Shown piece by piece: positions 5,979 to 35,330 of a stretch of 42,047 bases of DNA. The notes beneath the pieces are model-generated. The model saw only the letters and a list, made by a program, of their open reading frames with translations. It searched no databases and was not told the origin of the DNA. Every line of letters begins with the position of its first letter. Positions within the stretch are counted from its first letter, which is position 1. Source of the DNA: a virus (Duplodnaviria > Heunggongvirae > Uroviricota > Caudoviricetes); IMG/VR virus record IMGVR_UViG_2660238591_000003. One strand, given 5' to 3'. The position numbers and the translations under genes are program-made.

Positions 5979-6329
5979 ATGCCAAAATCAGAAACAACCA
6001 TAAAATTTACTCCAGCTATTTGGAAAGAGTTACTTCCTGTAATCCAGGATAACATACCCGCTAATGACTATGTAGTAAGTAAAAGAGTCAGAACGGGTGA
6101 TTCTCCTGGCGCTATTGGCACAATTCTCGAAATATCTATTACCGTTATCACATCATCACCAGCTTGTATCGCCATTGCATCGATAGCGAGAAAATGGTTA
6201 CAGACCAGATCATCAAAAAAAATAACGGTAACCACTGAAAAAGGTACGATCGAAATACAAAATCTGACATCAAAGGAGCTTTCAGAAGTACTGGAGCAGT
6301 ACAAAATTATAAGTTTTAAAGACGAGTAA
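5979..6329 (+). CDS. hypothetical membrane protein, AT-rich moron (opposite strand to the late operon)
   Basis: 116 aa. Hydrophobic helix AIGTILEISITVITSSPACIAIASIA. Stop is followed by a terminator hairpin. AT-rich by eye. Confidence 0.55.
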   Translation: MPKSETTIKFTPAIWKELLPVIQDNIPANDYVVSKRVRTGDSPGAIGTILEISITVITSSPACIAIASIARKWLQTRSSKKITVTTEKGTIEIQNLTSKELSEVLEQYKIISFKDE

Positions 6330-18196: not shown

Positions 18197-18314
18197 ACTG
18201 GGGTTTATCTAATGCTTTAGCACGAGCTCTTCACCACTAATTTTCGGCCTTGACACTCTAAATTCGATAGTGAAAACATGAACATTGATTCCCACCACCA
18301 AAAGGAGTTTTGAA

Positions 18315-18512
18315 ATGAGCACTAAAGCAGAATTGTTAGCGAAGATGGATCGCATGGCAGATGAGTGGTCACGCACCACTGGCCTCAACAATGACTATGT
18401 TGAGGGCGAGCGTTACACCAAAATCAAAGACCAACTTGCAGCGCTCGGGGTGAACGCTCGCATTGATGCCGTAGAGGGTAATTCAGCTCAATTCAGGGTT
18501 TATGTAGATTGA
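18315..18512 (+). CDS. hypothetical small protein, moron in the head module (opposite strand)
   Basis: ATG at 18315 with AAGGAG 8 nt upstream; 65 aa (MSTKAELLAKMDRMADEW). Strong terminator immediately downstream. Confidence 0.55.
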   Translation: MSTKAELLAKMDRMADEWSRTTGLNNDYVEGERYTKIKDQLAALGVNARIDAVEGNSAQFRVYVD

Positions 18513-22719: not shown

Positions 22720-22980
22720 ATGTCAGATGTAGAAAAAAGAATTGCCCATCTTGAGGATTTGGTTGAAGAGTTACAGTTACACAGCCACGCTTCTCGTGTT
22801 GCTATTGCTGTATTATCAACGGCTTTAAACGGAGTTGTGGGGAAAGAAACTCACCTCGGAGATGTTTATTTAGAAGGGGTTTCTAAGGCCGACCCCATCG
22901 AATTCGACATTCCCGCTAAAGATGGATACCTAGAAAAATTAAACGAGAGAGTCGCTGCTCTACTAGGCAGAGCACAATAA
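22720..22980 (+). CDS. hypothetical small protein, moron between terS and the lysis genes
   Basis: 86 aa; AAGGAA RBS 8 nt before the ATG. AT-rich and opposite in orientation to flanking late genes. Confidence 0.55.
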   Translation: MSDVEKRIAHLEDLVEELQLHSHASRVAIAVLSTALNGVVGKETHLGDVYLEGVSKADPIEFDIPAKDGYLEKLNERVAALLGRAQ

Positions 22981-23743: not shown

Positions 23744-24020
23744 CCGCAACAGCCACTTTGATATCTGCCTGGGCTCTCTGTGACTCCAGTGCGATCTTGT
23801 TCTTTGCATTCTGGTTCGCCTCTGAAATGGCGTTGATGATACTCACGGCCCGAATCACGTTCGCGGTGACAGCATTCGCGGTCTCAGCCTGCTGTTCTGC
23901 GCTATCGGCCCGCTCCTTTTCGCTACTGGCTTTGTCGCTGTAATACCATGCCGACCAGCACGCCCCGCCGAACAGGCAAAGGAGGAATATGGCAATCGCA
24001 ATGATGTGACGAGCTTTCAT
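23628..24020 (-). CDS. Rz: i-spanin (Rz-like)
   Basis: 130 aa with an N-terminal TM (IIAIAIFLLCLFGGACW) and coiled coil. ATGA overlap with the endolysin stop. Confidence 0.75.
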   Translation of the reverse strand: MKARHIIAIAIFLLCLFGGACWSAWYYSDKASSEKERADSAEQQAETANAVTANVIRAVSIINAISEANQNAKNKIALESQRAQADIKVAVADDDCARRPVPAAAANRLREYADSLRAGAGGAPAGEPDS

Positions 24021-28098: not shown

Positions 28099-28332
28099 CT
28101 AATAAAACCAGTCGTCAGCGCTTTCCCAGGTATCCTGGAGGATTGATTCAATTTTCTTTTTATCGTCCTTGTCACCACCAAAAACACTTAACCCATCGGC
28201 CCCGGCACGGCGGATTGTGAGCCTGCAATTGTCATAGTGATCATTCAGGCGCTTAAGCAGTTCTTTCTCCAGTGCTGGTACTGCGCCTTTAGGAAGTTCT
28301 TTCATGCGATCAATGGTTAATTCAACTTTCAT
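28099..28332 (-). CDS. dinI: DinI-family protein (SOS-inducible RecA modulator homologue)
   Basis: 77 aa: MKVELTIDRMKELPKGAVPALEKEL...KKKIESILQDTWESADDWFY, closely resembling E. coli DinI (...ISEILQETWESADDWF). A consensus LexA box lies immediately upstream. Confidence 0.85.
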   Translation of the reverse strand: MKVELTIDRMKELPKGAVPALEKELLKRLNDHYDNCRLTIRRAGADGLSVFGGDKDDKKKIESILQDTWESADDWFY

Positions 28333-28350
28333 AATGGCCCCCATTGCATG

Positions 28351-28370
28351 TACTGTGTTTTTATACAGTA
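28351..28370. promoter_or_regulatory. LexA (SOS) box
   Basis: TACTGTGTTTTTATACAGTA fits CTGT-N8-ACAG. It lies 7-19 nt upstream of the dinI-like start codons and overlaps a TATAAA -10-like element. Confidence 0.8.
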
Positions 28371-28430
28371 TACCTATGCGCGGAAATGATCAACGTTTTA
28401 AGAGCACAAATTGTTAATTTTCTGTCAGTT

Positions 28431-28460
28431 GTAAAAAAAGAAAACCCGCCGTAGCGGGTT
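28431..28460 (-). terminator. intrinsic terminator (- strand)
   Basis: Stem AACCCGC/GCGGGTT followed on the - strand by TTTCTTTTTTTAC; insulates the dinI promoter. Confidence 0.6.
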
Positions 28461-28823
28461 GAATTAGCAGTGTTATATTAAGCGGCAATTTCTTTCTGCC
28501 GGCACAATCCCGAGAGATTCGCCCTCTGTATCGCATCATCAATGAGCACCTGTATGACCATGAGGCAAAGCGTTATCCAACTTGCATTCATCTTTTTCAA
28601 TCAGCAAAGGAGTGGTTAGTGCTGTGAGTGGGCTTTGTTCACTTCATGGTAGATAAATCAGCTATGGATAAGTGATAAGAGGTGAAATCAATCCGAATTA
28701 ACAACCTGAAGCACATTAATCGGAACACAGATATTAAAATCCTAAAGTCTAGTAACAAATAGCCGATATGAGATATTGCTTATCAGTTTAAAAATCATCT
28801 ATTGAAAAAATGGGGGGGAGGCG

Positions 28824-29387
28824 TTGAAGCGAGTAGAGCGCGATTTTATCTGTCTGTTTAATTGTGTGTGGTATCAAGATTTCCCTGTGTTCAAAGGTGA
28901 ATATATCAACCGTTCCAACTGGACCATTCATGTTGGCCTGGTCATGCGCGAGTGTGCAAAGTTAATGGGCGCAAGAACATTTTTTGAACAAGGCGGGCGT
29001 ACCGATGCGGTCCTACAATATCCAGACAATCAAATTTTAACCTATGTTGAGTGGGAGTATAATCAGGCAGACAGAGATAGCGTTAACGAGTTAGACAAAC
29101 TGCTTGAAAAAAACGACAAGTGCTATTTCTCCACATTCATCTCATATTGTCAGCATGAAAACATCAATATTGTTATTGAAAAAGCAAGTAGAATATGGAG
29201 TGAAGCAAGCAGGCCTTTGATTTTTTTTCTTATCACCTATGAGCCTCAAACGAAAAAACGCCGCCATTTTTTAGAACTCAGAACTTATTTTTTCTCAAAC
29301 GGCAAAAGAAAACTAGTTCGCAAACAACCTGCGCTTCCATGGGATATTGAGCAACGAAAATACAATGTCGAAGAAGATGCAGGATAG
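28824..29387 (+). CDS. hypothetical protein in an AT-rich island (candidate accessory/defence gene)
   Basis: 187 aa. TTG start preceded by GGGGGGAGG. Opposite strand to all flanking phage early genes. No motif I can assign. Confidence 0.55.
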   Translation: MKRVERDFICLFNCVWYQDFPVFKGEYINRSNWTIHVGLVMRECAKLMGARTFFEQGGRTDAVLQYPDNQILTYVEWEYNQADRDSVNELDKLLEKNDKCYFSTFISYCQHENINIVIEKASRIWSEASRPLIFFLITYEPQTKKRRHFLELRTYFFSNGKRKLVRKQPALPWDIEQRKYNVEEDAG

Positions 29388-29426
29388 AAGAGACATAAGG
29401 TTTTCACGACAGTCTCGTTCCGAGCC

Positions 29427-29808
29427 CTAACTAAAATATTCTGTTCGGAGCAACCAAATAGCTCTGGCTTTGCTGTGACCATGTTCGCGGTACCAACGCC
29501 TCTCTAGGTCCGCTTCTCGCTCATGGTGGACCAAAATCAAATCTAAAATGACGTGGCTAAGCGGGAGTACATAGTGAATGACAGGATGCTCCGGGCAGCA
29601 CCATACTAATTCAGTTCCCGTCAGAGGTAGGCGTTGCTTCATGATGGGATGAGCGCTCCCTCCAGACAATCCATGCGACAGCCGCCTCCCATGATATATA
29701 TCCATTACCGCCATTTTTCGCTCTGCGGAGATTAACTGCATCACCAAACCTTTCAATGATGAATTTTTCAAATTCTATGCGTTTTTCTTCGTCGATTGTT
29801 GAATCCAT
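29427..29808 (-). pseudogene. possible decayed gene (two overlapping frames)
   Basis: Track ORFs 29611..29808 and 29427..29771 overlap in different frames in AT-rich DNA. Confidence 0.3.
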
Positions 29809-30087
29809 ACCTTCCCCAGAAGAGTCCTACGAATCGCTCTTATTGCATAAAAAATAGCATATACAATAGAGAGTGAAAAACCGACGTAGCGGGTTAACTT
29901 TATGTTACTCATGAGTCTTGTCTCGCTGCGACTTAAAAGCGGAACATTCTCGCGCAAGTTGCGTTGCTAAAGCTACGGGGTTGAATGGCTCTCCATGCCC
30001 ATTTAAGAAGGCATGCGGTGTGTAGTTGAACGTTATTTAAAACACAGATAGAATCAAGAAAAATCCTAAATAAATGGAATATTGTTT

Positions 30088-30468
30088 ATGGCTAAGAAAA
30101 TCGCATTACTGGGCTTTTCTGCTCTTTTTGTTGCAAGTGTTGCTTTTGCTGAAACGACAAGTAACTGGGTTGAGGTTACTACAGCTGATGATGGCATTTT
30201 TTCAGCAAAAAAAGGCACATTTAGAAATGTAAAAGGTGATTCATCTGCCTTGTTCATGTATCAAACAAAAAATAAAAAAGTAGAGTACTACAAAGTTAGT
30301 ATTAAAGATGCCGACTGTGATAGTGGATATGGGGAGATAAGATTCTTCTATATGGATGGGAAATTAGCTTTCAAAGGTGATTATGTTGCTGATGGGAACA
30401 GTGTTGGCGCAGGTATTGGTGATTTTATGTGTGGAGTCAGAATTGGACTTAACACACAAAAAAGTTAA
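30088..30468 (+). CDS. hypothetical secreted protein (moron)
   Basis: 126 aa. Signal peptide MAKKIALLGFSALFVASVAFA/ET; two Cys in the mature part. AT-rich. Confidence 0.6.
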   Translation: MAKKIALLGFSALFVASVAFAETTSNWVEVTTADDGIFSAKKGTFRNVKGDSSALFMYQTKNKKVEYYKVSIKDADCDSGYGEIRFFYMDGKLAFKGDYVADGNSVGAGIGDFMCGVRIGLNTQKS

Positions 30469-30882
30469 ATGAGGGGCATTTGTTAAAAAACAATAGCCCC
30501 ACATTAGATCAATATTGGCTCCGGCATTTCTGGATAAAAGCTTCTATGCTACGGCGCTCATAGCGAACAATCTTAGCGCTGAACTTTACACGGGGCCAAT
30601 GTAGACCGGTGTCGGTGTTCTGTATTCCATTTACATAATGTTTTTTGCGTAATTCCCAGCTTCTGGCATACCTCGCCCGGAGTGAGGAGATCATCAGGTT
30701 GCTCAGTCATGTTATGCCTCGCTGTTATCTGGGGTGATGATTAGCAGCTTCCAGATGGCTGAGACATACATAGCCTGATGTTTCGCATCGACTAGGGCAT
30801 TATGCATGTCACCTTCAAACGGCATGTCCCGAGTTCTCCCTTTTCGCCGCTTTCGCGTCGCATATTCTCCAAACGGTATTTA

Positions 30883-34520: not shown

Positions 34521-34802
34521 GTGTCTAAAGAAACAACCGTCGAACTTATGCATCTTAATGATGTAATCGAAGCGAAAAATTTCATCGAGACCAATGCTGA
34601 CGGTGTCGTAACAATCGGCACACAAAATGCCGGTTACGAAGTTTACAATTTTGTGTTCCTGAATAGCAGCCCGATCATCGGTACGGATAATGCGGATATA
34701 GTCGTCAAGGGCATGCAGCGAACCAAAGTTGTGTCTGTGACTTTAAGCAAACAAAAGGCTTATGATTTTTATCAATCCTTAAAAAGTATGTTTGAGGAAT
34801 AA
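34521..34802 (+). CDS. hypothetical protein A of a repressor-linked cassette
   Basis: 93 aa. Same strand and likely same transcript as the repressor. AT-rich. Confidence 0.6.
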   Translation: MSKETTVELMHLNDVIEAKNFIETNADGVVTIGTQNAGYEVYNFVFLNSSPIIGTDNADIVVKGMQRTKVVSVTLSKQKAYDFYQSLKSMFEE

Positions 34803-34805
34803 TAA

Positions 34806-35330
34806 TTGATGGATGCGGCTCAATCATCTCTTGGTGAAGGGAAGTTATTGATTGCATATTCAGACCATAGCGGAGCTACAGTAGGCTTAGAGTTTTCATC
34901 AGTAGCTTCGAGCCAAGCAACCTTCCTTATGGGTGCTTGTAGTTTTGCCGCTTCGGATAAACAAAAACGGATTGTCACATCAGTTGCTATGGATGATACT
35001 GAAATCATTCATACGTCAACTGAAGATGGAGGTGACGACATGGAAAAGAGATTGGCTATTCTTGAGGTTGAAGTTGCCCACATCAAGAAAGATGTTGCCG
35101 AGATAAAAAACACAGTTTCAAAAGTTGATACGACAGTGAATTCACTGGACAAAAATATGGCTGTAGTTTTGGAGAGGCTGTCTAGTATCAAAGAGTCTGT
35201 AGACAAAAAGCCCTCATCAGACACAGTGGACAAGAAAATCTCTGATGCTAAATTGGCGATTCTCTTAGGTGTCCCTGCGATTATCGCCATTGGTACAGGG
35301 CTGTACAAAGCTTTTATGCACTTCTTTTAG
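34806..35330 (+). CDS. hypothetical protein B: coiled-coil protein with a single C-terminal transmembrane helix
   Basis: 174 aa. Start 4-7 nt after the stop of A. Heptad-like LAILEVEVAHIKKDVAEIKNTVSKVDTTVNSL and C-terminal TM LAILLGVPAIIAIGTGLY (reminiscent of XhlA-type proteins). Followed by a strong terminator. Confidence 0.6.
   Translation: MMDAAQSSLGEGKLLIAYSDHSGATVGLEFSSVASSQATFLMGACSFAASDKQKRIVTSVAMDDTEIIHTSTEDGGDDMEKRLAILEVEVAHIKKDVAEIKNTVSKVDTTVNSLDKNMAVVLERLSSIKESVDKKPSSDTVDKKISDAKLAILLGVPAIIAIGTGLYKAFMHFF

Follow-up and report, generated by a model that had tools for sequence, protein, structure and literature searches.

A candidate stand-alone, BamHI-like nuclease gene carried as cargo by a lambdoid prophage

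The catalytic residues of the restriction endonuclease (REase) BamHI are D94, E111 and E113, and a hallmark of the enzyme is the replacement by glutamate of the lysine in the (D/E)xK motif, an ExE arrangement with which BamHI is active. Other defence nucleases operate independently of any methylase. Among these, Shedu SduA and Hachiman HamA are single-protein PD-(D/E)xK nucleases of defence islands and mobile elements, larger than the protein described here and equipped with sensor or inhibitory domains or with a helicase partner, while NucC, the cA3-activated effector nuclease of CBASS and type III CRISPR systems, is a methylase-free immune effector of about 240 aa whose gene invariably accompanies a CD-NTase or a type III CRISPR locus. 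Here we describe ORF187, a gene of 187 codons found in a 42,047-nt stretch of DNA from a tailed virus (IMG/VR record IMGVR_UViG_2660238591_000003, Caudoviricetes; "the window" in what follows), whose product is predicted to adopt a BamHI-like PD-(D/E)xK fold.

The ORF187 protein resembles BamHI, OkrAI and BstYI in size (187 vs 194–213 aa) and in the order of its motifs, GGxxD ... ExE ... (N/D)KL, with E-x-E standing for (D/E)xK; the central motif reads VEWE in ORF187 and LEWE in OkrAI. It differs from these enzymes in having an extra N-terminal helix (residues 3–15, ERDFxxLF) and a conserved WTxH helix, and in sharing only 9–12% identity with them in structural alignments, with no significant sequence or profile similarity. 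A further difference is the lack of an adjacent or recurrent methyltransferase (MTase) of the kind linked to type II restriction–modification enzymes: none is annotated anywhere in the 42-kb window, nor does one appear in the list of the 25 commonest Pfam families for the 141 proteins encoded within 3 kb of the gene at 22 homologue loci. Type IV restriction enzymes are stand-alone nucleases that cut modified DNA only and usually have a domain that reads the modification. ORF187 stands alone too, but it is a single domain without such a reader, and neither ORF187 nor its family members matched the mREase_IV models of PADLOC. Compared with SduA and HamA, which it recalls in its presumed independence of a methylase and in its occurrence on mobile elements and in defence islands, ORF187 is a bare 187-aa domain and finds no match in PADLOC. 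Unlike NucC, it has no CD-NTase or type III CRISPR neighbours in the annotated loci of its homologues, and it does not match the PADLOC model for NucC.

ORF187 as a gene and its predicted fold

The initial annotation of the window had placed a + strand open reading frame of 187 aa, with a TTG start, at the position given in Table 1. A coding sequence of identical extent is present in the RefSeq/PGAP annotation of E. coli ES7 (WP_170973743.1, "hypothetical protein"), a genome that is 99.9% identical to the window over positions 28300–30800. By chance, about 0.001 open frames of at least 187 codons would be expected per 2.2-kb block, counting all six frames at the composition of the block. A word-indexed search retrieved 34 full-length homologues from Enterobacterales and Pseudomonas, with 52–96% identity, and an exhaustive profile search returned 183 homologue clusters at E ≤ 0.001 (108 of them at E ≤ 1e-10). 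The MKR[VI]ERDF N-terminus is kept, together with the Shine–Dalgarno (SD)-like sequence, across 28 loci from several genera, and comparison with the enterobacterial homologues gave dN/dS = 0.05–0.06 at dS = 0.3–1.0. An identical protein sequence occurs in the index of more than 1,300 blocks of the public assembly collection, chiefly from the Citrobacter freundii complex and E. coli. ORF187 is, with near certainty, a real gene under selection.

Every source labels this protein as hypothetical. Searches of Pfam, NCBIfam, PHROGs, PADLOC and PDB sequences gave no match for ORF187 (in PADLOC-DB v2.0.0, none at E up to 1), and Pfam and PDB profile searches with 73 diverse family members were just as empty, which leaves the family outside the Pfam BamHI family (PF02923). 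Against PADLOC-DB v2.0.0, the same 73 members produced three single matches only, all at chance level. A literature search by accession and keyword found no description of the family, which is thus unnamed and undescribed in the libraries and literature searched.

When modelled by AlphaFold2 with the family alignment, ORF187 folded as a single domain (pLDDT 85.9, pTM 0.84). The model begins with two helices (residues 3–15 and 30–47) and three strands (51–53, 62–65 and 71–81), and continues with a helix (89–95), a strand (102–110), another helix (111–125) and three further strands; its core has the alpha-beta-beta-beta-alpha-beta topology of the PD-(D/E)xK superfamily. Over the 73 sequences, down to 19% identity, E55, E76 and E78 are invariant, and conservation reaches 90% or more at T34, H36, D61, W77, E89 and K92. 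D61 lies immediately before the second core strand and E76-W77-E78 inside the third, that is, at the canonical "PD" and "(D/E)xK" positions as placed by the order of secondary structure elements, with a glutamate in place of the lysine of the (D/E)xK motif. The catalytic site would then consist of D61 and E76-x-E78, in the manner of BamHI D94/E111/E113, with K92 on the following helix.

The initial annotation had recognized no motif in the product. This holds for the sequence libraries, but the structure searches point to a fold-level, BamHI-like PD-(D/E)xK assignment. The Foldseek matches were remote (TM about 0.4), the top one being YaeQ (E = 2e-5), which has a restriction-endonuclease-like fold; EcoRV was also among them. 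YaeQ is similar to ORF187 in length, but the TM-scores between the two were only 0.31–0.41, there was no sequence match, and YaeQ is a conserved chromosomal gene rather than mobile cargo. In a structural comparison the closest folds were those of BamHI, BstYI, OkrAI and BglII, with further matches to Hjc, NucS, SfsA, NucC and an MmcB-like phage protein, while among the viral structures of BFVD no match was found at E ≤ 0.001. A profile comparison against BamHI alone was rejected, because only a 12-residue patch (WYxDxP / WYREKP) aligned, with a probability of 1.2%.

On the basis of topology and residue conservation, we consider it likely that ORF187 is a PD-(D/E)xK nuclease. Judging from the model, its relatives form a new sequence family in this superfamily, with a BamHI-like shape and motif. 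The category is a known one, comprising PD-(D/E)xK nucleases and prophage morons; what is new is the sequence family itself.

ORF187 as mobile cargo

The window contains one prophage, in which an integrase, RecET, a repressor/cro/YdaT region, a replication gene and a nin region (holding NinB-like, RusA and Q genes) come first, followed by lysis, terminase, head and contractile tail genes and by an invertible tail-fibre segment. The early rightward transcription of this prophage runs along the − strand, and ORF187 faces the early operon head-on. In this respect the initial annotation, which had called ORF187 a solitary + strand gene, was right; the gene is not the only one on that strand, however, since ORF126 (Table 1) is also on it. 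The same annotation had described the whole region as AT-rich and as insulated by a − strand terminator. Indeed, positions 28461–30700 have a G+C content of 41.2%, whereas the window averages 52.9% and the nin/Q genes on the left of the block 56.4%, and a hairpin followed by a T-run was found where the terminator had been placed.

This AT-rich block is carried by only 3 of 5426 complete E. coli genomes. Two sister prophages encode an identical DinI (WP_000861984.1) and yet differ in the contents of the slot between the replication genes and dinI, which holds only a Dcm-methylase remnant in the first but, in the second, a wHTH gene together with several hypothetical genes and a tRNA-Ile. This comparison of neighbourhoods, which the initial annotation had suggested as a check, shows that the slot is variable. 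The arrangement DinI(−)/ORF187(+)/ORF65(−)/ORF126(+) recurs as a block in Citrobacter and E. coli assemblies, and since it is paired there with differing nin genes (NinG, RusA+YbcO or DUF968), Q types and replication modules, it is a mosaic module of lambdoid prophages.

ORF187 is also shared as a smaller unit. A 914-bp module (positions 28619–29532), in which the gene is preceded by 205 bp and followed by 145 bp of flanking sequence, is found with 86% identity at an unrelated chromosomal site in other Enterobacterales; the encoded proteins are 96% identical, meaning that most of the DNA differences are synonymous. In one genome, a P4-like island and a gene for a type I HsdR adjoin the copy of this module. 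Overall, the prophage homologues occupy three different slots, usually on the opposite strand. On Pseudomonas phage contigs the homologue lies, on the opposite strand, between HNH endonuclease and TerS genes, and in Pseudomonas prophages it adjoins KilA-N genes. Homologues are also carried as cargo of an integrative and conjugative element (ICE), beside SIR2_2 and TraG, and by Pseudomonas megaplasmids, on one of which (pQBR57) the gene adjoins recA and an ERCC4-domain nuclease gene. The family ranges over E. coli/Citrobacter, Pantoea, Pseudomonas, Dehalococcoidia and one Bathyarchaeia metagenome-assembled genome (MAG), and no homologue was found among the 50,697 sequenced phage records of INPHARED. 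Three Pseudomonas copies (L032, L033 and L050) are pseudogenes, with stops, frameshifts or truncated remnants, implying an ongoing loss of the gene.

Many of these features recall lambdoid morons such as bor, lom, rexAB and sieB, which are units of deviating composition between conserved phage genes, are transcribed oppositely or independently, and are polymorphic in their presence among related phages. The ORF187 insert, likewise variably present between conserved phage genes, has a G+C of 0.40 vs 0.53–0.56. Two differences from those morons are that a consensus scan found no promoter or terminator belonging to ORF187, and that the predicted product is a nuclease and not a membrane or exclusion protein. 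The idea, already put forward in the initial annotation, that ORF187 is horizontally acquired cargo is thus well supported by the AT-rich composition, the presence in so few E. coli genomes, the differing slot contents of the sister prophages, the shared 914-bp module and the homologues on mobile elements.

The sequences flanking ORF187 travel with it (Table 1). The SD-like GGGGGGGAGG is spaced from the start codon by 2 nt. All members of the enterobacterial clade start with TTG, whereas the Pseudomonas homologues begin with ATG or GTG. The upstream stretch holds an invariant GCCGATA, the site reading TAGCCGATAT in the window and in the closest homologues. Low expression of ORF187 would be in keeping both with the conserved TTG start and with the absence of a strong promoter. 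A structured RNA in the conserved flanks was rejected (no Rfam match at E up to 1 and no tRNA), as it was for the downstream stretch in particular, where the fold z-score was only −1.8.

Among the 141 neighbours introduced above, PADLOC recognized Shedu SduA (3e-302), a type IV REase, DarT, DarG, a DRT reverse transcriptase, MzaA and PDC-M53. A Gabija-like OLD+UvrD pair lies within about 2 kb of one homologue; one homologue is flanked by a WYL/WCX regulator on one side and by a 454-aa/SIR2 gene pair on the other, and an AAA ATPase and BrxR are encoded close by. A conserved partner gene for ORF187 was sought in this set and none recurs: the neighbours fall into 132 different Pfam families, none of which is represented in more than 5 proteins, arguing against a recurrent partner. 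An IetA-like AAA ATPase recurs in only two homologue loci.

Some homologue loci have arrangements of their own. In two Pseudomonas lineages (L070, 5504–9850, and L031, 4001–8974), the homologue is followed by co-directional genes for a 454–458 aa protein and a 249-aa SIR2 protein. A divergently transcribed WYL/WCX regulator gene precedes this group, and the gene of an AAA ATPase of about 700 aa converges on it from downstream; the nuclease may here be recruited by a defence locus of several genes. Another locus (L018, 227–4386) consists of a packed string of four genes with overlapping stops and starts, encoding, in order, a 706-aa IetA-like AAA ATPase, a 347-aa protein, the ORF187 homologue and a 112-aa protein. 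At L021 (5935–8229) the homologue overlaps the start of a dynamin/MMR_HSR1-type GTPase gene pair (264 + 283 aa), the second member of which gives a weak PADLOC match to LeoBC.

Possible roles of ORF187

We tentatively propose, giving it somewhat under an even chance, that ORF187 is a stand-alone nuclease moron, expressed in lysogeny, that cuts or nicks foreign DNA and so serves phage exclusion or defence. The protein would be a single-domain, metal-dependent PD-(D/E)xK nuclease with BamHI, BstYI and OkrAI as its closest structural relatives. Its translation from the TTG start would be weak and, given also the AT-rich composition and the orientation towards the early operon, the product would appear chiefly in the lysogen, where the early transcription running towards the gene is kept repressed. 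There it could cut or nick incoming DNA, as a superinfection exclusion or anti-phage factor, with no need for a partner methylase. The lack of such a partner implies either that the target is not presented by host DNA or that the activity is tightly limited; the host might be spared through cutting of modified DNA only, through specificity for DNA structures or ends, or through a very low or conditional activity.

A role in defence or exclusion, to which we likewise commit ourselves only tentatively, is favoured over anti-defence or fitness functions by the orientation of the gene and by its neighbourhoods. More doubtful, and rather unlikely as a whole, is the broader notion of a minimal (about 190 aa), methylase-independent BamHI-like family that protects lysogens, ICE hosts and plasmid hosts from phages and invading DNA. 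Such a family would tell self from non-self by a principle foreign to classical type II enzymes; its bare catalytic domain might, for instance, cut only where it meets a DNA modification, a particular structure or a replication intermediate.

Several of our results weigh against a defensive nuclease. An enzyme of this type, lacking a methylase, would need some other way of sparing its host, and the consensus scan detected neither a promoter-like nor a + strand terminator-like site for ORF187. A tie to any nuclease family is absent at the sequence level (Pfam, NCBIfam, PHROGs, PADLOC and PDB profiles). In the Foldseek search, the central domain of acetyl-CoA carboxylase and nitrilases, which are unrelated alpha/beta proteins, scored like the nuclease matches; since the latter are remote, the superfamily call rests on topology and conservation together. 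Moreover, when the ORF187 family was compared by hhalign with a BamHI-family profile built from 33 sequences (the BamHI sequence having been confirmed against 1BAM), the result was not significant (probability 0.4%, E = 0.15). In that non-significant alignment GGRTD/VEWE/DKL of ORF187 fell on GGPID/MEFE/NKL of BamHI, in the register D61=D94, E76=E111, E78=E113 and K92=K126, a hint that is consistent with the fold match but is not proof of it. Finally, some chromosomal settings are unlike defence: the P. fluorescens group keeps the gene at one site, where a cytochrome c gene follows it after 56 bp, and the Dehalococcoidia homologues (about 33% identity) occur among GluRS, NfeD, radical-SAM and CoA-transferase genes.

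The latter settings would suit a structure-specific nuclease of repair, recombination or housekeeping, comparable to MutH, Vsr, Hjc or MmcB and carried by mobile elements as an accessory, outside defence. We regard this explanation as unlikely, even though it accounts for more than the fixed site in the P. fluorescens group and the housekeeping neighbours in Dehalococcoidia, some of which the homologue overlaps in operon fashion. It also agrees with the position of ORF187 next to the SOS gene dinI in the window, with the plasmid-borne recA and ERCC4-domain nuclease genes that adjoin it on pQBR57, and with the structural matches to Hjc, NucS, SfsA and the MmcB-like phage protein. It is harder to reconcile with the opposite-strand, AT-rich placement in three different phage slots, with the several Pseudomonas loci that are defence islands, and with a patchy distribution that includes pseudogenized copies. 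In addition, the prophage hosting ORF187 already encodes RusA, NinB and RecET.

Alternatively, ORF187 could be a type II-like, sequence-specific REase protected in trans, by an unlinked MTase or by the Dam or Dcm of the host. The closest folds (BamHI, BstYI, OkrAI and BglII) are those expected for such an enzyme, and solitary restriction enzyme genes with distant MTases have a documented precedent (57 of 272 cases; PMC3488263). Nevertheless the gene hops as a 0.9-kb single-gene unit, and the absence of an annotated MTase from the window and from the most frequent neighbour families listed speaks against protection, making this alternative improbable. One and the same family spans E. coli/Citrobacter, Pantoea, Pseudomonas, Dehalococcoidia and the Bathyarchaeia MAG, hosts that to our knowledge share no common solitary methylase (Pseudomonas, for example, lacks Dam).

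We find it just as hard to credit that ORF187 is a selfish, free-standing homing-type endonuclease, which would spread by cutting empty sites while its insertion, by altering or adjoining the target, protects the host. PD-(D/E)xK homing endonucleases do exist, such as I-Ssp6803I, and the mobile unit here is confined to the gene and short flanks (about 200 bp upstream, 145 bp downstream). In several phages it is inserted between genes that are conserved (e.g., HNH/TerS), and the translation signals of the gene are weak. The insertion contexts, however, are many and unrelated instead of a single homing site, neither a duplication of the target site nor a conserved target in the flanks came to light, and the gene shows a dN/dS of 0.05 across genera and stable vertical retention.

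An anti-defence nuclease, destroying a component or signal of host immunity and helping the phage or mobile element to establish itself, would be in keeping with carriage by phages, ICEs and plasmids and with the structural similarity to NucC, a cA3-binding nuclease. This is very improbable, since ORF187 opposes the early operon in this prophage, and its homologue opposes the packaging genes on the Pseudomonas phage contigs, so that co-expression with infection-stage genes would not be expected; in addition, the gene is missing from all the INPHARED phage records and stable in chromosomes. Least credible of all is a catalytically inert PD-(D/E)xK-fold protein, serving as a DNA-binding regulator or scaffold: the lysine of the (D/E)xK motif is indeed replaced by glutamate, and inactive members of the fold (e.g., YaeQ-like proteins of unknown activity) are among the matches, but the three invariant glutamates, D61 and K92 are kept down to 19% identity and BamHI is active with the same ExE arrangement.

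Other features of the locus and implications

Table 1. Features of the AT-rich block and its borders (positions in the window)
Feature	Position	Strand	Basis or remark
dinI-family gene, left border of the mosaic block	28099..28332	−	Pfam DinI, E = 4e-26
Perfect LexA (SOS) box TACTGTGTTTTTATACAGTA, before dinI	28351..28370	.	Sequence
Intrinsic-terminator-like hairpin AACCCGCTACGGCGGGTT (28460-28443) and T-run	28433..28460	−	Ends − strand transcription before dinI
Non-coding upstream stretch travelling with ORF187, presumed promoter/5' leader	28619..28823	+	86% identity to an unrelated chromosomal locus
G-run/SD-like GGGGGGGAGG (28812-28821), then CG and the TTG start	28812..28826	+	Sequence
ORF187	28824..29387	+	187 aa, TTG start; predicted PD-(D/E)xK (BamHI-like) fold, unnamed family
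Downstream stretch co-conserved with ORF187; weak hairpins, no canonical terminator	29388..29532	+	Conservation, hairpin scan
ORF65, small early-strand gene	29611..29808	−	Partial match to phrog_660 (unknown function)
Degenerate second copy of the terminator hairpin	29875..29900	−	85% identity, direct repeat of the copy at 28440-28465
Second + strand moron: promoter-like TTGAAC-17-TAGAAT (30026-30054) and ORF126, 126-128 aa (30082/30088-30468)	30026..30468	+	
Truncated 3'-5' exoribonuclease pseudogene, right edge of the AT-rich block	30712..30831	−	RefSeq

The two copies of the terminator hairpin listed in Table 1 bracket ORF187 and ORF65 with a spacing of 1435 bp, and may be a scar of the insertion of the module. 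The perfect LexA box found before the prophage dinI suggests that this gene is probably under SOS control, independently of the early operon. As for ORF126, located 700 bp downstream of ORF187 and with a G+C of 36.5%, its promoter-like sequence is the best sigma-70-like site of the region and its product begins with a signal peptide (MAKKIALLGFSALFVASVAFA). This second gene travels with ORF187 in enterobacterial prophages and has no family match; it may encode a periplasmic or surface exclusion factor.

Elsewhere in the window, the − strand operons for tail, head and terminase enclose small hypothetical genes on the + strand (5979–6224, 18314–18511 and 22720–22980), of which the first and the third coincide with local dips in G+C (0.40–0.44). 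All three are candidates for further morons. Directly downstream of the repressor-like HTH gene, at 34548–35330 (+), there are two hypothetical genes (84 + 173 aa) of 0.39–0.41 G+C, and because the pair occupies the position of lambda rexAB it is likely expressed in the lysogen. At 454–2230 a recombinase-family (Hin/Gin-like) gene adjoins two oppositely oriented tail-fibre assembly genes, an arrangement that suggests an invertible host-range segment. RefSeq also reports a truncated DUF2570 (spanin-like) gene in the lysis cassette (23748–24020), which, together with the truncated exoribonuclease gene, indicates that the prophage carries decayed genes.

Some longer proteins were encountered within the family. 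Four distant members of 299–319 aa (P0084, P0149, P0153 and P0161) have N-terminal extensions of 90–140 aa, which were inspected for informative domain fusions and gave no Pfam match; a resemblance of the P0084 extension to Phd/YefM-type antitoxins is an impression only. The apparent fusion P0097 (1950 aa, 15 stretches) was rejected as a repeat artefact.

If ORF187 were a repair nuclease or an inactive protein, it would be an ordinary hypothetical moron. Yet it can reasonably be put forward as a new single-gene defence family, given its minimal, BamHI-like form with no methylase, the wide range of mobile elements that carry it and the defence-island genes that often lie near it, the functional evidence being circumstantial. 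Should this be true, ORF187 would rank among the smallest stand-alone immune nucleases known, as a BamHI-type catalytic core that works without an MTase and whose 0.9-kb unit has reached prophages, ICEs, megaplasmids and defence islands. It would add a single-gene family to the defence catalogue and give a compact system in which to study how a host stays unharmed by a restriction-type active site. Since the protein is common in the Citrobacter freundii complex and in E. coli, an effect on phage susceptibility or DNA uptake could matter for phage therapy and for the spread of plasmids in Enterobacteriaceae.

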